This document shows, piece by piece, positions 4,360 to 16,530 of a stretch of 24,000 nucleotides of DNA. Within the stretch, counting starts at the first letter, position 1. The number at the start of each line of letters is the position of its first letter. This stretch comes from Nitrososphaerales archaeon (GTDB taxonomy: Archaea; Thermoproteota; Nitrososphaeria; Nitrososphaerales; CADDZS01), in the NCBI GenBank assembly GCA_030037995.1, contig JASHPQ010000110.1, positions 9,945 through 33,944 on the forward strand, written 5' to 3'. The translations under genes and the position numbers were made by a program. Under the pieces are notes generated by a model. It saw nothing but the letters and a program-made list of their open reading frames with translations. It was not told where the DNA came from and ran no database searches.

Positions 4360-6003
4360 TTAAACAAGAGCGCGCGGATAATACTCGCCGAAAACCGTCC
4401 TCAGAGCGTCGCTTATTTCCCCCGTAGTAACGCCGGCTTTCGTTGCTTGAATTATGAAGGGAACAAGATTATTCTCATCTCCGTGACTCCTCCGTGAAGC
4501 TCGTTCCTGCAATGCGGAAATGGCCTTTTCACAGGAGGATCTGTCACGTTTTCTCCTGAAGTCTTGCAGGTGACTCAGCTGTCTTTCGATGGATTTTTTA
4601 GAAATTTGAAGAACTTTGAGTGGTTCTCTCTCCTCGCTCTGGAACATATTGACACCAACGACAACCTTCTTTTTTTCGTCGACTTCTTTTTCGTACTTGT
4701 AGGCGCTGTTCTGAATTTCTTTTTGAATGTAGCCGGCCTTGATGGCCTCTAGGGCTCCGCCTAGTCGCTCGATCTTTTCGAGCTCTTCGTTTGCAAGAGC
4801 TTCGATTTCGTCCGTCAGACATTCCAAGTAGTAGGAACCTCCCAAAGGGTCCGCCGTTTTGATTACCCCAGATTCTTCCGCGATGATCTGCTGTGTTCGG
4901 AGAGCTATCGTCACGGCGTCTTCAGAGGGCAAACCGAGCGCCTCGTCAAAGGAGTTGGTATGCAGTGACTGGGCACCTCCTAGTACCGCAGCAAGTGCCT
5001 GCACGGAGACCCGGATGACGTTGTTGTGCGGTTGTTGCGCGGTGAGTGTTTCTCCGCTCGTCTGCGCGTGGAACTTTAGCTTCATGGAGTTTTCGTTCCT
5101 GGAATTGAACCGATCTTTAACGATCTTTGCCCAAATTCTCCTTGCTGCCCTAAACTTCGCAATCTCCTCCAAAAAGTCATTTCGACATGCAAAGAAAAAC
5201 GAGAGCTGATCACAGAAAGCGTCTATGGCAAATCCTCTATCAATTACTCCCTTGACGTACTCAATAGCATCCGCGAACGTGAAAGCAAGCTCTTGAACCG
5301 CGCTGGCTCCCGCCTCCCGCATGTGATAACCAGATATGCTGATCGGATGCCATTTCGGCATTTCCTTGGAGCAGAAGGTTATGAGATCGATGCTGAGGTC
5401 GAATGAGGGATCCGGAGGATAAATGAAAGTATTCCGCGCCGCGTACTCTTTCAAAATATCGTTTTGAGTCGTCCCCCTCAGAGTCGATCTCGAGATCCCG
5501 TTTGCTTCAGCCGCAACGACGTACATCGACAACATGATCGACGCGGTTGCGTTAATCGTCATGCTCGTCGAAACTTTGTCAACTGGAATGTCTGACAGTA
5601 GGGTGTCCATGTTTTCCAGAGTGCTTATTGCTACTCCCACCTTGCCAACTTCCCCCTCGGATCTCGAGCTGTCTGAGTCGAAACCCAGCTGCGTCGGCAG
5701 GTCGAAGGCAATGCTCAAACCCGTCTGCCCTCGCTCCAGCAAGTACTTGAATCGCCTGTTCGTGTCTTCAGCGGTTCCAAAGCCGGAGTACTCACGCATC
5801 GTCCACAAACGCTCCCGGAACATTTCACGATAGATTCCACGAGTGAATGGAAAGATCCCTGGTTCCTCGTTTATTTCGCGAGTTGTTGTCGAAGAATAAA
5901 AGGACTTGACTGGGATTCCCGAATCGGTTTCGAACTTCTTTTCGTCTTTCACCTTTCGGTCTTGATTCAGGACAGTCAAATGAGTCATGCTCGCCTCATT
6001 CAT
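4360..6003 (-). CDS. mcmA: Methylmalonyl-CoA mutase, catalytic (substrate-binding TIM-barrel) subunit. It has no fused B12 domain.
   Basis: It carries 'FPFTRGIY...LWTMREYSGFGTAEDTN', 'GLSIAFDLPTQLGFDSD', 'TSMTINA', 'GTTQNDILKEYAARNTFIYPP', 'SISGYHMREAGAS' and 'AARRIWA'. The Tyr (..EYSGF) and Arg (..AARNT) at the carboxylate-binding positions fit a true MCM. GGGAGA lies 6-11 nt upstream of ATG 6003. Confidence 0.92.
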   Translation of the reverse strand: MNEASMTHLTVLNQDRKVKDEKKFETDSGIPVKSFYSSTTTREINEEPGIFPFTRGIYREMFRERLWTMREYSGFGTAEDTNRRFKYLLERGQTGLSIAFDLPTQLGFDSDSSRSEGEVGKVGVAISTLENMDTLLSDIPVDKVSTSMTINATASIMLSMYVVAAEANGISRSTLRGTTQNDILKEYAARNTFIYPPDPSFDLSIDLITFCSKEMPKWHPISISGYHMREAGASAVQELAFTFADAIEYVKGVIDRGFAIDAFCDQLSFFFACRNDFLEEIAKFRAARRIWAKIVKDRFNSRNENSMKLKFHAQTSGETLTAQQPHNNVIRVSVQALAAVLGGAQSLHTNSFDEALGLPSEDAVTIALRTQQIIAEESGVIKTADPLGGSYYLECLTDEIEALANEELEKIERLGGALEAIKAGYIQKEIQNSAYKYEKEVDEKKKVVVGVNMFQSEEREPLKVLQISKKSIERQLSHLQDFRRKRDRSSCEKAISALQERASRRSHGDENNLVPFIIQATKAGVTTGEISDALRTVFGEYYPRALV

Positions 6004-11661: not shown

Positions 11662-11916
11662 GTGCAGAACGAGCTCTTGTTGTCGGAAGAGACGGTCACT
11701 GTCAATAAAAAGGGCCAATTTACTATTCCTGCCAGATTTAGAAAACAGTTCCGAATACAGGAAGGCACGAAGTTACTCGTAACTCATGATGAATTTGCGA
11801 TTGTCATTCGTCGACTCCTTGACATGGACGATCTTGTGGGGATTCATTCCGGAAAGACTGGTGCAGAGGAATTGCTCAAAGAGCTTGATCAGATGCGAAA
11901 GCAGGACAGGTACTAG
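11662..11916 (+). CDS. vapB: AbrB/SpoVT/MazE-fold antitoxin (VapB-like).
   Basis: It has 'VTVNKKGQFTIPARFRKQFRIQEGTKLLV', the swapped-hairpin DNA-binding motif. The protein is 84 aa with a GTG start. It ends 11 bp upstream of the PIN gene. Confidence 0.75.
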   Translation: MQNELLLSEETVTVNKKGQFTIPARFRKQFRIQEGTKLLVTHDEFAIVIRRLLDMDDLVGIHSGKTGAEELLKELDQMRKQDRY

Positions 11917-11927
11917 GTTCGCAACAA

Positions 11928-12326
11928 ATGGTACGCACAGTGGATACTCGATTTCTGCTCCTCCAGGTGATCGCTGACAGCGAAGAATTGAAATCGAAAG
12001 TACGTTCTAAGATGCTCGAACTTCGTCAGGAAATGGCCCTCGTCCCGACCATCGTCCTACACGAAGTGTACAAGATCGAATTTCACAGATTCGGCAGAGA
12101 AGCCGCAGATGTCCAGCTGAAATCGATCGAGACTTCGGGACTGAAAATCGAGGAACTGACCGTGGAGATTGCCCGAATCGCTGCGGTGCTGCGGTGCAAG
12201 TACACAGATTTACCCGTGGCAAATTCGATAATCGCAGCAACGGCGATCGTCAAAGGATCGAAAGTCGTTTTTTCTGATGACGAGCAGTTCGCCAAAGTGA
12301 AGGAGATAAGGGCGGAATGGTTTTGA
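11928..12326 (+). CDS. vapC: PIN-domain protein (VapC-like toxin).
   Basis: The protein is 132 aa with 'VDTRFLL' (Asp6), 'LHEVY' (Glu46), 'ANSIIAATAI' and 'VVFSDDEQF' (Asp117/118). Its size and its pairing with an AbrB antitoxin are typical of VapBC. Confidence 0.8.
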   Translation: MVRTVDTRFLLLQVIADSEELKSKVRSKMLELRQEMALVPTIVLHEVYKIEFHRFGREAADVQLKSIETSGLKIEELTVEIARIAAVLRCKYTDLPVANSIIAATAIVKGSKVVFSDDEQFAKVKEIRAEWF

Positions 12327-12412: not shown

Positions 12413-12712
12413 GTGAGAGACAGGGCATCCAGATATGCGACGAAAAAGCAAACAACTTCGGCCAGGAGATCTAGCCCGCTTCTAATCGCCTATGTCACAA
12501 GAACTCCCAAAGGAAAGATTCGGTTACGCAGGATCGGGATAAGGTTTGAAGGTCAGAAGGAAGAGGTCATCGAGAGCCTGCCCTCCGACGATCCCAGGTA
12601 CGTATTTAACGACGATTATAAGGTAAGAAAATCCACTCACAGCATCGTAAAAAAGTCCGCAAAGTTTGCCAGATTCTACGATGCCAGCGCGAGGATCTCG
12701 TACGACGTGTAG
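12413..12712 (+). CDS. Hypothetical basic protein.
   Basis: The ORF is 99 aa. It shows good purine-first codon periodicity in its distal two-thirds, and GAGG lies 4 nt upstream of GTG 12413. I recognise no motif, and there is no in-frame ATG. Confidence 0.4.
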   Translation: MRDRASRYATKKQTTSARRSSPLLIAYVTRTPKGKIRLRRIGIRFEGQKEEVIESLPSDDPRYVFNDDYKVRKSTHSIVKKSAKFARFYDASARISYDV

Positions 12713-12760: not shown

Positions 12761-13687
12761 TCACTTTTTGCCCTGCGAAATTTTTCTGTAAAATTCTCCG
12801 TGCTTGTCCTGCTCGACCAGTTTCTCCTTTACGAGCTTTGCGCAACAGGCTTCGAGTACATCTGGATCGATACTCGTGCCGTACTTTTCGTCTAGCTCTT
12901 TTTCGATCTGAAAGAACCCCTTCCAGTGCATATCTCCCAATTCTTCCAAGACTCGGGATCTCAATTCTCCTTCATCTATCGTCGATTCGACGCTCTTGGT
13001 TTGAGCCTCCGGCGCTTCCATGTCCGAAGTGGCCGCTTTTTCGACAAGCGGAACCCATTCGTTTATGGCACTTTTGAGTTCCTCCATATTAGCTGGTCTG
13101 TACTTTTGCAGGAATTCCGTCTTCGTGGTGGACGGATCGCCAGGCAGATTGTGCCAGACTACGTTGAGCGATGGCCTGAGAATACCCCTGTTACCCGAAA
13201 CTGTGACGATCTGCTCCAAAGGAATTGCAAACGCATCCCGCTCTTGAAGTAACTCCTGGACATCTGCATCTTCTTGAGCTGATTTGCCCACGGCGAACAC
13301 CAGTCGTCGATTGGTCAGTAGTAGTGCCCCTTCCTGAACGGCGTGAGAGTTCTTGCGGATCACATTATCCTGAGTCTTCAGGACAGCTTCTTTTGAAGTA
13401 TCGAAGGACACACTGGTAGGTCTTGCTGTCGAGAGCGTCTCGTTCCCAATTGTATAGTTCTGGACATCTAGATTCAAGTTAGAGGACGAAGAAGAGGAGT
13501 ACTGCTGCGAACCAAGAGTATCTTCGTAAATGTATCCACAGTAGGAACAAGTCTCATCGGTGGAGTTTCGAGCAGTTCCGCACATTGGACATTTCGAGAG
13601 TTTGTTGTCGGCCAAAAACAGACAATCGTTGTTCCTTGATTGCATTTCATTCTTTCGGGTATTTCTCACCCCGATGGACTTGGGCAT
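12761..13687 (-). CDS. Uncharacterised multidomain protein: N-terminal zinc ribbon, Ser-rich linker, PH/GRAM-like domain and C-terminal winged-helix-like domain.
   Basis: The protein is 308 aa with an ATG start. It has C33-x2-C36-x10-C47-x2-C50 ('CPMCG...CSYCG'). The stretch 'GALLLTNRRLVFAV...IPLEQIVTVSGNRG' resembles GRAM / bacterial-PH / GLUE strand patterns. The C-terminal 'MHWKGFFQIEKELDEKYGTSIDPDVLEACCAKLVKEKLVEQDKHGEFYRK' looks like a winged-helix domain. Confidence 0.75.
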   Translation of the reverse strand: MPKSIGVRNTRKNEMQSRNNDCLFLADNKLSKCPMCGTARNSTDETCSYCGYIYEDTLGSQQYSSSSSSNLNLDVQNYTIGNETLSTARPTSVSFDTSKEAVLKTQDNVIRKNSHAVQEGALLLTNRRLVFAVGKSAQEDADVQELLQERDAFAIPLEQIVTVSGNRGILRPSLNVVWHNLPGDPSTTKTEFLQKYRPANMEELKSAINEWVPLVEKAATSDMEAPEAQTKSVESTIDEGELRSRVLEELGDMHWKGFFQIEKELDEKYGTSIDPDVLEACCAKLVKEKLVEQDKHGEFYRKISQGKK

Positions 13688-13820: not shown

Positions 13821-14435
13821 TTGGAATTCGAACGGCTTGGAGACGACGAACGCAAATTGCGCGAGTTGCTTCGCCTGCGAAGTTTGAGAAGACTCAAAAT
13901 TAGCAATCCTATTTGTTTGACTTCAGTTGACTCGACTCAGTCATTCATCGCTAACAAGCTGCACAGTTCGGCCGAAGGAGATCTCGTCATTAGCAGAGTG
14001 CAGACTGCCGGTAAAGGTCGCGAGGGCAGATCATGGTTCTCCCAGGAAGGCGGACTCTGGATGACTATGACCCTGCTTCCCCCGAACGCCGACATCCTTG
14101 CCAGAATTCCTTCAATCGCCACGAACTCGATCCTCAAGACGCTGGAGGATTTCGGGGCGCGAGGGTGCTCTATCAAGCCGCCGAATGATGTGTATTGCGG
14201 CGGAAGAAAGATTGCAGGTGTGCTGGCAGATGCAAGCGTCACGGGATCGAGCTCTGTTGTTTATCTGGGAGTGGGAATCAATGTGAACAACGACACTTCT
14301 GAAATTGATAGGATCTCCGAAACTGCAACAAGCATGCGATACGAAACAGGCAGTACACTCGATCTGATGGAGTTCGCGGCCTCACTAATTGCGAGTCTTG
14401 ATTTCGAATACGCTCGGGCCATTGCTGAGATGTAA
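13821..14435 (+). CDS. birA: Biotin-[acetyl-CoA-carboxylase] ligase, class I (no N-terminal HTH).
   Basis: It has 'VDSTQSF', 'VQTAGKGREGRSWFS' (the GxGRxGRxW biotin/ATP loop) and 'NDVYCGGRKIAGVL'. The protein is 204 aa. Only non-ATG starts are available (TTG 13821). Confidence 0.85.
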   Translation: MEFERLGDDERKLRELLRLRSLRRLKISNPICLTSVDSTQSFIANKLHSSAEGDLVISRVQTAGKGREGRSWFSQEGGLWMTMTLLPPNADILARIPSIATNSILKTLEDFGARGCSIKPPNDVYCGGRKIAGVLADASVTGSSSVVYLGVGINVNNDTSEIDRISETATSMRYETGSTLDLMEFAASLIASLDFEYARAIAEM

Positions 14436-14775: not shown

Positions 14776-16530
14776 ATGACGAACGGGTCTTACTGGATGC
14801 TAAAGTTGGAAGGTCTCGAAGAAAAGAAACGGCAAGAAAGAGATGGCGATTTTGATCCGAAGAGAATGAGCATCCTAAGGGAGAAGATCCACAACTGGGA
14901 GAAATCTGTCCTCGATCCGGTGCTTTCAGAAACTCCAGAAAGGAAAGATCAGTTCGAGAATTTTTCGGGGATTACACTGAAGAGGATCTATACTCCGGAA
15001 GATGTGACGGATCTGGACTACTCCAGAGACCTGGGGATGCCTGGCGAGTATCCTTACACTCGGGGAGTATACCCAACGATGTACCGGGGGCGGCCCTGGA
15101 CGATGCGCATGTTCTCTGGATTTGGTACCGCAGATCAGACGAACAAGCGACTCAAGTACTTGCTGAGAGAGGGAGAAACCGGCCTTTCAATCGCTTTCGA
15201 TATGCCTACCCTCTACGGTTATGACGCGGACAGCGACAGGGCGGAGGGCGAAGTTGGGAAGTGCGGAGTGTCCGTTTCCTCCTTGGCAGACATGGAAACG
15301 ATCTTCGACTCTATTCCGCTGGATCAAGTAAGCACCTCCATGACAATCAATGCTCCCGCCGCGGTGCTGACGGCGATGTACGCCGCGGTCGGGGAAAAGC
15401 AGGGAGTTCCACTGGAAAAACTCCGAGGTACTGTACAAACGGACATCCTGAAGGAATACATTGCGCAGAAAGAGTGGGCCTTTCCTCCAGACGCCCATCT
15501 GCGAATTATCCGGGATCTCATGGTCTTTTGCACTGAGCGCATGCCCTACTGGCATTACATCAGCATCTCAGGGTATCACATCAGGGAGGCGGGAGCGAGC
15601 GCTGTGCAGGAGCTTGCTTTCACACTCGCAGACGGTTTCTCGTATGTGGATCTTGGAAGAGAGGCAGGTCTGGACGTAGACTCGTTTGTTCCGCGGTTTT
15701 CCTTTTTCTTCAACTGCGACATGGACTTTTTCGAGGAGATTGCAAAGTTTAGGGCGGCGAGACGTATCTGGGCGACCGTCATGAAGGAAAAGTTCGGTGC
15801 AAAAAATCCGAGGTCAATGCTCCTACGCTTTCACACGCAGACTTCGGGCGTTTCGCTGACTTGGCAGCAACCCCTTAACAATGTCATCCGGACAACGGTA
15901 GAGGCGCTCGCAGCCATTTTGGGAGGCACACAATCGCTTCACACCAATTCTTATGACGAGGCCTGGGCCCTTCCCACAGAAGACGCCGTCACAATCGCCC
16001 TGAGGACTCAGCAAATTCTCTCGGAAGAAACTGGAATCACAGATGTCGTAGATCCGCTAGGTGGCTCTTACTACCTGGAGTGGTTGACCGCCGAAATGGA
16101 AGAGCAGGCGTACAAGTATTTCGAAAAGATCTACCAGATAGGTGGGGTTCTGGAAGCAATCAAGCAGGGGTTCCTTCAGAGGGAGATAGCAAACACCTCT
16201 TATCACAAGACCAAGGAGCTAGAGTCCGGGAAACGCTTTGTGGTGGGAGTCAACAAATATGAGGTCAATGAAGAAAAGCCGATTGACTATCTGAAAGTAA
16301 ATCAAGCCCTCCGGAGAAAAGCGGTGACCAAGCTTCGGACTTTGAAGAAACGGAGGGACAAAAGCCGGGTTTCGCAATCGCTGGAAAACCTGAGAAAAGC
16401 ATTCGAGGACCCCGGCTCGAACTCCATGTATCCTATTCTCGAGGCGGTGAAGTCATATGCAACGCTCCAGGAAATAATGGATGTGGGAAGGCAGGTATTC
16501 GGCGGATGGAAGGAACCGGTAATCGCCTGA
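14776..16530 (+). CDS. B12-dependent acyl-CoA mutase catalytic subunit, second paralog, with an isobutyryl-CoA-mutase-like active-site signature.
   Basis: It has 'YPYTRGVY...PWTMRMFSGFGTADQTN', 'GLSIAFDMPT', 'TSMTINA', 'GTVQTDILKEYIAQKEWAFPP', 'SISGYHIREAGAS' and 'AARRIWA'. Phe and Gln occupy the positions where the 4360-6003 paralog has Tyr and Arg. GGAG lies 9 nt before ATG 14776. Confidence 0.92.
   Translation: MTNGSYWMLKLEGLEEKKRQERDGDFDPKRMSILREKIHNWEKSVLDPVLSETPERKDQFENFSGITLKRIYTPEDVTDLDYSRDLGMPGEYPYTRGVYPTMYRGRPWTMRMFSGFGTADQTNKRLKYLLREGETGLSIAFDMPTLYGYDADSDRAEGEVGKCGVSVSSLADMETIFDSIPLDQVSTSMTINAPAAVLTAMYAAVGEKQGVPLEKLRGTVQTDILKEYIAQKEWAFPPDAHLRIIRDLMVFCTERMPYWHYISISGYHIREAGASAVQELAFTLADGFSYVDLGREAGLDVDSFVPRFSFFFNCDMDFFEEIAKFRAARRIWATVMKEKFGAKNPRSMLLRFHTQTSGVSLTWQQPLNNVIRTTVEALAAILGGTQSLHTNSYDEAWALPTEDAVTIALRTQQILSEETGITDVVDPLGGSYYLEWLTAEMEEQAYKYFEKIYQIGGVLEAIKQGFLQREIANTSYHKTKELESGKRFVVGVNKYEVNEEKPIDYLKVNQALRRKAVTKLRTLKKRRDKSRVSQSLENLRKAFEDPGSNSMYPILEAVKSYATLQEIMDVGRQVFGGWKEPVIA

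Follow-up and report, generated by a model that had tools for sequence, protein, structure and literature searches.

A stretch of 24,000 nucleotides from a Nitrososphaerales archaeon (contig JASHPQ010000110.1, positions 9,945 to 33,944; the window) encodes on its minus strand a protein in which a zinc ribbon, a pleckstrin homology (PH)-like domain and a winged helix follow one another along the chain. The three domains, which had originally been predicted from the sequence, are all present in an AF2 model built on an alignment of 31 sequences, with a mean predicted local distance difference test (pLDDT) score of 69 and a predicted template modelling (pTM) score of 0.42. This pTM score, together with three confidently modelled domains connected by linkers with pLDDT values below 50, indicates that the domains are independent and not packed together. 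The protein belongs to a family so far seen, apparently, only in Thaumarchaeota (Nitrososphaerota). Its folds are known; their combination is undescribed in the literature and has no Pfam model. Our tentative reading, to which we assign a probability of about 0.45, is that the protein is a soluble cytoplasmic adaptor or scaffold, in which the PH domain serves for recognition and the acidic winged helix docks a protein.

The maximal open reading frame (ORF) occupies positions 12761..13687 (minus strand), starts with ATG and has 308 codons, of which the first 24 are probably untranslated. Its translation contains the CPMC-x10-CSYC signature, the Ser-rich stretch, the strand motifs and the acidic linker from which the architecture was first proposed. 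Residue numbers refer throughout to this 308-residue ORF.

Domain organization of the predicted protein

The PH-superfamily domain is GRAM/GLUE-like and comprises residues 98–221 (13025..13396, minus strand), as delimited by the AF2 model, Foldseek, Pfam and profile comparisons. Its seven strands (residues 102–112, 117–125, 128–133, 153–156, 160–166, 173–179 and 187–194; pLDDT 80–90) form an antiparallel sandwich, with an inserted helix (residues 140–147) and a C-terminal capping helix (residues 208–220). A seven-stranded antiparallel sandwich with a C-terminal helix is the arrangement by which the PH superfamily is recognized. A Foldseek search against the PDB yields 24 matches with E-values of at most 1e-3, nearly all of which are members of the PH superfamily (GLUE, GRAM, DH/PH and others). 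The highest ranks are taken by the GLUE domains of human EAP45 (2hth_B, E 1.5e-5) and yeast Vps36 (2cay, E 2e-5 and 6e-5), followed by BBS5, KETc7, the N-terminal domain of SSRP1, a Leishmania domain and the GRAM-PH domain of MTMR2; the E-value for GLUE is only about 5–10 times better than those for unrelated PH domains. GLUE, BBS5, the SSRP1 N-terminal domain and MTMR2 GRAM-PH are binding modules, not enzymes. A fold search against BFVD gives generic PH and winged-helix matches only.

The domain contains the motifs EGxLxLTNRRLxF, IPLEQI and SGNRGILRPSL. Among 62 family members, weak Pfam matches are found to Vps36_ESCRT-II (PF11605; 21 members, the largest number for any Pfam family; best E 0.0022), bPH_3 (11 members), GRAM (6) and PH_TFIIH (2). 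All PH-type matches across the family have E-values of 0.002 or worse and lie below threshold, and in Pfam no score exceeds the gathering threshold of GRAM, of bPH or of Vps36_ESCRT-II. The window protein itself matches bPH_3 over residues 98–175 with E 0.15 (13.0 bits against a cut-off of 23). When the family profile is compared with PDB sequences, 2cay and 2dx5 are found at E 0.6–1.0. An hhalign comparison of the family profile with the human VPS36 GLUE sequence, which was checked and is 100% identical to 2hth_B, gives P 0.002; with a vertebrate-only GLUE profile the values are P 1.2e-4 and a probability of 55% over 72 columns, this profile being shallow (effective number of sequences ~1.5) and the comparison a lower-quality test than HHpred. 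The alignment places GxLxLTxxRLxF in register with GxLLLSTHRLIW, and IPLEQI with IPLSQI. Because these hallmark GRAM/GLUE motifs are aligned in register, the PH domain is assigned to the GRAM-like branch of the superfamily. GLUE is nominally the closest solved relative, by a margin too small for specific orthology.

The C-terminal domain is a single canonical winged helix (residues 238–304; 12776..12976, minus strand), with an isoelectric point (pI) of 4.8, a net charge of -6 and a short basic tail, as judged from the AF2 model, the fold search and the charge. In the full-length model residues 239–302 form three helices and two strands (pLDDT ~82). The domain modelled alone has a pLDDT of 80.8 and matches winged helices with query-normalised template modelling scores (TMq) of ~0.75, so that the fold that had been suspected in this region is obtained in both models. 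The best fold matches of the isolated domain are PadR/RosR proteins, Fur/Zur, the cullin WH-B domain, BlaI/MecI and Z-alpha; PadR/RosR structures superimpose with TMq values of 0.71–0.77 at 23–28% identity, and no ESCRT-II chain occurs among the top 50 matches.

The winged helix is acidic throughout the family. Of the 62 members, 61 have a winged helix with a net charge of zero or below (minimum -11) and 57 one with a charge of at most -3; in most of them its pI lies between 4.2 and 5.1. At the N-terminus of helix 3 a conserved D-P-D..E segment aligns to the H-G-R-L-Y segment with which the recognition helix of RosR begins. The protein ends 4–8 residues past the wing, without a PadR-type dimerization helix. 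In view of the family-wide acidity, the acidic residues at the contact positions and the lack of a following helix, the winged helix is most likely a docking site for a partner protein and not for DNA. Acidity of the halophile type may contribute to the match with RosR.

The N-terminal module is a four-Cys zinc ribbon (residues 30–58; 13514..13600, minus strand), in which Cys33, Cys36, Cys47 and Cys50 are arranged as C-x2-C-x10-C-x2-C. It is identified by Pfam, the AF2 model (pLDDT ~80) and codon conservation; the match to Pfam Zn_Ribbon_1 (residues 32–52, E 5e-4) is sub-threshold. The Cys spacing equals that of NZF/RanBP2 fingers. These fingers follow the consensus W-x-C-x2-C-x3-N-x6-C-x2-C and carry a T-F dipeptide for ubiquitin binding. 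The ribbon has neither a Trp before the first Cys, nor an Asn at position +4, nor the T-F dipeptide, and the family consensus is C-G-T-x-R; Zn_ribbon_RanBP is matched by 3 of the 62 members, with E 0.023 or worse. With these signature residues missing, a ubiquitin-binding NZF finger is ruled out, and the sequence is that expected of a generic zinc ribbon.

Both linkers that had been noted in the sequence appear as flexible segments in the model. The Ser-rich linker (residues 59–97; 13397..13513, minus strand) has pLDDT values of 30–35, with disorder at residues 59–94, and corresponds to variable, poorly conserved alignment columns. The acidic linker between the PH domain and the winged helix (residues 222–237; 12977..13024, minus strand) has pLDDT values below 50 for residues 223–235. 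Searches with Pfam, NCBIfam, PADLOC and PHROGs assign the protein to no catalytic and to no defence or phage family, and no transmembrane segment was detected.

Family distribution, gene start and upstream element

The original prediction regarded the protein as an orphan, which the searches contradict. A word-indexed search finds 30 close homologues at 40–99% identity; phmmer, run exhaustively on 1.84 billion cluster representatives, finds 64 homologues, each representing a cluster at 50% identity; and a profile search matches at least 358 clusters at 90% identity. All homologues are labelled 'hypothetical' and have no Pfam domain. Wherever a source name is given, it is a Thaumarchaeota, Nitrososphaerales or Nitrososphaerota metagenome-assembled genome, without exception. 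A scan of genome contigs with alignment A1 finds one locus only. The conservation of the family at 25–62% identity over at least 358 clusters indicates that it is under selection. The related statement that the protein fits no named family is borne out: neither a Pfam nor an NCBIfam family covers it, and only sub-threshold hints are obtained. NCBIfam gave nothing useful, the PDB contains no sequence-level relative of the 308-residue protein, and the literature searches returned no description of the family.

Two forms of the family can be distinguished. The form with a zinc ribbon (ZnR+), which includes the window protein, has ~265–290 residues, and the form without it (ZnR-less) has ~220–245 residues; the two are 25–33% identical over the PH and winged-helix parts. 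ZnR-less members (for example P0050, P0054-P0056, P0062, P0070, P0073 and P0076, and loci L003-L006 and L010-L014) truly lack the ribbon, since stop codons are located just upstream of their start. Many of them terminate in a conserved F-Y-R-K-x-S-P-L-G-E-D-D-L-S-S segment. This SPLGEDDLSS tail is absent from the ZnR+ subgroup, where a basic tail replaces it, and looks like a candidate short linear docking or phosphorylation motif.

The ZnR+ loci also indicate that a product of 308 residues, as first proposed, is probably too long. In a comparison of locus DNA, a TTG codon eight codons ahead of CPMC (13615–13613 in the window) is common to the window and the loci L001, L002, L007 and L008. The upstream DNA of the ZnR+ loci has diverged save for this TTG and an island of 13–14 nucleotides, which in the window overlaps the first 14 codons of the ORF; in L001 and L002 in-frame stop codons lie between the island and the TTG. 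Because of these stop codons and the overlapping element, translation probably starts at the TTG, and the likely coding sequence is 12761..13615 (minus strand), with 284 codons and a stop codon. The pLDDT of ~40 for residues 1–28 agrees with a later start. An ATG at 13645 may serve as an alternative.

Most public gene calls of family members begin at the internal Met of C-P-M-C, which removes the first Cys pair (P0005, P0007-P0012, P0014, P0015, P0017, P0019, P0020, P0024, P0028 and P0030). At five loci the DNA retains TGyCCnATGTGyGG, encoding C-P-M-C, although the gene callers start at the internal Met. This systematic error is probably explained by a true start codon, TTG, that is not ATG. 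Gene callers have thus either halved the zinc ribbon or, as for the window gene, over-extended the ORF.

The conserved upstream element reads CCGAAAGAATGAA in the window (13646..13658, minus strand; consensus yCCGAAAGArTsAAA) and is located 30 nucleotides upstream of the TTG, within the annotated N-terminus of the 308-residue ORF. The equivalent positions are 9952–9965 in L001, 9927–9940 in L002, 7927–7940 in L007 and 7925–7938 in L008/L009. The island is perfectly conserved amid the diverged surroundings, with the TTG 27–31 nucleotides downstream of it, and occurs exactly once in each ZnR+ locus and not at all in the ZnR-less loci. Its position fits the region of the B recognition element and TATA box of a leaderless mRNA, which makes it a candidate promoter core; a regulator-binding site would be the alternative. 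Rfam (at gathering thresholds) and ARAGORN give no matches in the window, so that the element is not a known RNA.

Possible function and genomic context

If the protein is an adaptor, it would consist of three independently folded binding modules strung on flexible linkers as 'beads-on-a-string'. The GRAM/GLUE-like PH domain, the conserved core of the family, would probably recognize a ligand, which may be either a partner (protein or peptide) or an anionic head-group of the membrane. The single acidic winged helix would hold a partner protein, not DNA, and the four-Cys ribbon would be an N-terminal module confined to the ZnR+ subgroup. In this arrangement the adaptor would act as a tether between the ligand of the PH domain and the protein bound to the winged helix. 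We infer that the modules bind rather than catalyse, and any pathway in which the adaptor might act is conjectural; so far nothing ties the protein to the ESCRT machinery.

Several observations weigh against an adaptor. No face of the PH domain is consistently basic, and the pI of the domain varies between 4.2 and 9.9 within the family, so that the charge does not indicate membrane binding. No conserved operon partner is found in any of the ~9 genomic contexts. The nearest sequence relatives of the winged helix are the DNA-binding RosR/PadR proteins (RosR: profile E 8.4e-4, 28% identity over 67 residues), and the wing carries a conserved F-[FY]-R-K segment that could touch DNA. Finally, local regulators are classically encoded by a divergent winged-helix gene beside an operon. 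By its layout the gene is monocistronic, as had been stated: it is convergent with one neighbour and divergent from the other, which encodes a BirA-like biotin-protein ligase consisting of the catalytic domain only, without a DNA-binding domain (13821..14435, plus strand). This pairing is kept throughout the ZnR+ subgroup.

The protein could instead be a local transcription regulator. Its winged helix would bind the 133-bp intergenic region shared with birA, and the PH-like domain, alone or together with the zinc ribbon, would serve as a metabolite sensor. Its targets would be birA and/or the genes of the biotin-dependent carboxylase and methylmalonyl-CoA mutase, and possibly its own gene via the upstream element. 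The divergent pairing with a ligase that lacks a DNA-binding domain in six of six ZnR+ loci, down to 40% identity, argues for such a role, as do the RosR profile match (E 8e-4), PadR/RosR structures as the top winged-helix folds (23–28% identity), the conserved R-K on the wing and the perfectly conserved, gene-specific upstream element. Other observations argue against it. The winged helix is acidic in a family that is not halophilic, it places acidic residues at the helix-3 contact positions of RosR, and no dimerization helix follows it. The conserved element is not palindromic and occupies a core-promoter position. The 24-kb block is collinear among relatives, so the adjacency to birA may be inherited gene order. 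ZnR-less relatives, moreover, are found in at least five other, unrelated housekeeping neighbourhoods (RbkR/translin, VKOR/tRNA-edit, archaemetzincin/MMPL, VTT/diphthamide synthase and Macro) that have no target gene in common. A regulatory role, the main rival of the adaptor, is considered unlikely. If it were correct, archaeal transcription factors would gain a new type, one whose sensor has a PH fold.

A further, improbable explanation connects the family with the Cdv division/vesiculation machinery of Thaumarchaeota, for which it would provide a minimal adaptor resembling Vps36 of ESCRT-II. The GLUE-like PH domain would then contact the membrane or CdvA, and the winged helix a subunit of ESCRT-III (CdvB). 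The contact between the second winged helix of Vps25 and Vps20 provides a model for the latter interaction. GLUE is both the best fold match and the best weak sequence match of the PH domain, the family is restricted to Thaumarchaeota, and fusions of a zinc ribbon with a PH domain are proposed parts of an Asgard ESCRT-I (PMC11188069). In addition, Thaumarchaeota do not have the link between the broken-winged-helix interaction site (BWI) of CdvA and the broken winged helix (BWH) of CdvB that is present in Crenarchaeota; the recruitment of CdvB is thus unexplained (PMC8970359). The case is, however, one of fold resemblance only, with a GLUE E-value that is better than those of unrelated PH domains only by the small factor given above. 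The winged helix is single rather than tandem, with no ESCRT-II winged helix among its top 50 folds, the 62 members give no EAP30 or Vps25 signal in Pfam, and the ribbon does not have the NZF signature. No gene for Snf7/CdvB, Vps4/CdvC, MIT or CdvA is found within 8–10 kb at the 14 loci examined, which represent ~9 distinct contexts. If true, this explanation would supply the ESCRT-III recruitment step that is absent from Thaumarchaeota, since their CdvA has no BWI peptide and their CdvB no broken winged helix. It would also place a module of GLUE and winged helix outside Asgard archaea and eukaryotes, and move the origin of ESCRT-II-type adaptors back to the TACK/Asgard ancestor. Whether regulator or Cdv adaptor, the family merits a Pfam/arCOG entry.

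A chromatin or transcription-machinery factor, whose PH fold would bind acidic or histone peptides like TFIIH p62/Tfb1 or FACT SSRP1/Pob3, is very improbable. The significant fold matches do include the N-terminal domain of SSRP1 and chains of FACT-nucleosome structures, and PH_TFIIH is weakly matched in 2 of the 62 members. Yet these matches come after GLUE, BBS5 and GRAM in rank and are expected of any PH fold; there is no tandem PH domain and no contextual link to histone or transcription genes.

The adaptor reading remains our preferred, if tentative, one. Upstream of the gene in window order are genes for citrate synthase, a hydrolase, a second methylmalonyl-CoA mutase (MCM), MeaB, a tRNA_bind protein, biotin carboxyl carrier protein, biotin carboxylase, carboxyltransferase, MazE/AbrB and PIN proteins and a 99-residue ORF. 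Downstream of it are the divergent BirA-like ligase, MCM, a B12-binding subunit, uracil-DNA glycosylase (UDG), an M24 peptidase, an acyl-CoA dehydrogenase and the beta and alpha subunits of an electron transfer flavoprotein (ETF). The gene had been placed in a small accessory islet together with the toxin-antitoxin pair. The whole 24-kb gene order, including that pair, nevertheless recurs in relatives down to 40% identity: carboxylase operon, MazE/PIN pair, an ORF of ~100 codons, the family gene, birA, MCM, B12-binding protein and UDG. It is seen as a mirror image in L008/L009, L007, L001 (by ORF sizes) and the contig of P0030, the 40%-identity homologue, where both the toxin-antitoxin pair and the small ORF are present. 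In L002 only the side with BirA, MCM, B12-binding protein and UDG is shared, and an amidase and thiolases are found downstream in place of the other genes. Because the order recurs across relatives, it is a conserved core gene order of the clade and not an accessory islet.

The ORF convergent with the gene (12413–12712, plus strand) encodes a basic protein of 99 residues that is 65% identical to the product of L001 (10833–11135, minus strand). ORFs of similar size occupy the equivalent position in L007, L008 and the P0030 contig. The protein has no Pfam, PADLOC or PHROG match and is a real small protein of the clade, conserved but uncharacterized. The MazE/AbrB antitoxin and PIN toxin genes (11662–12326, plus strand) separate the carboxylase operon from the small ORF in relatives whose family protein is as little as 40% identical; the PIN domain is weak in the P0030 contig and undetected in L007. 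The pair is a clade-fixed VapBC-like pair rather than a recent acquisition.

PADLOC gives no match for the protein, the small ORF or the toxin-antitoxin pair, and PHROGs gives none for the small ORF and a single marginal one for the protein, in the zinc-ribbon region (E 0.0094). A defence island or prophage is ruled out by these results.

The window further contains two full-length paralogues of the MCM large subunit (4360–6003, minus strand, 547 residues; 14776–16530, plus strand, 584 residues), which flank the biotin carboxylase operon. MeaB, a separate B12-binding subunit, a cluster of ETF and acyl-CoA dehydrogenase genes and citrate synthase are present as well. No ammonia-oxidation genes are found in the 24-kb window.

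Comparison with known systems

The winged helix resembles those of PadR/RosR proteins, such as Halobacterium salinarum RosR (6ez1/6qfd), in fold and hydrophobic pattern. Unlike in these proteins, where the winged helix is N-terminal, it is located at the C-terminus and is fused to a PH domain. The family also differs in having no dimerization helix and in carrying acidic residues at the DNA-contact positions.

With the GRAM (PF02893) and bPH_3 (PF14470) families of the Pfam clan PH, the PH domain shares the fold, the hallmark motif of strands β1 and β2 and weak sequence matches, whereas all family scores are below the gathering thresholds. Proteins of the bPH type are usually membrane-anchored or oligomeric single-domain proteins, and we know of none that has been described with a C-terminal winged helix. 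To our knowledge, PH-like domains occur rarely in archaea, where their function has hardly been explored, and the only archaeal fusion of a zinc ribbon and a PH domain discussed to date is a proposed Asgard ESCRT-I component.

This component, Znr_PH_CC_SB (Makarova et al. 2024, PMC11188069), is likewise archaeal and begins with zinc ribbon(s), after which come a PH domain and, fused to it, a protein-interaction module. In contrast to the single ribbon and winged helix of the present family, it has three ribbons, a coiled coil and a steadiness box; the family, moreover, is thaumarchaeal and lies outside an ESCRT gene cluster, the two being compared by description only.

The analogy with ESCRT-II Vps36 that was drawn in the original prediction is, for the PH domain, better than was claimed there, on the strength of the GLUE folds at the top of the PDB matches, the Pfam matches in 21 of 62 members and the hhalign comparison, which together do not distinguish GLUE from other PH domains of the GRAM-like type. 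It does not extend to the single winged helix, the non-NZF ribbon or the gene neighbourhood, which is devoid of cdv/ESCRT genes at the loci examined. Vps36/EAP45 combines a GLUE domain (PF11605) with the tandem winged helices of EAP30 (PF04157). The family, in contrast, has one winged helix instead of a tandem pair and no preceding helical domain, and this winged helix is nearest to PadR and cullin types; neither PF04157 nor PF05871 is found among the top Pfam families matched by the 62 members. The ribbon is N-terminal and not of the NZF type, whereas in Vps36 the zinc finger is inserted in the PH domain. Family scores lie below the Pfam threshold, and the genomic context does not connect the family with ESCRT-III or Vps4. 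The resemblance consists in the best solved matches of the PH domain (2hth_B and 2cay), in the GxLxLTxxRLxF and IPLxQI motifs that align in register, and in the modular logic of zinc finger(s), PH domain and winged helix. A conserved family that is apparently restricted to Thaumarchaeota thus fuses a GLUE-like PH domain and a winged helix, two building blocks of eukaryotic Vps36.

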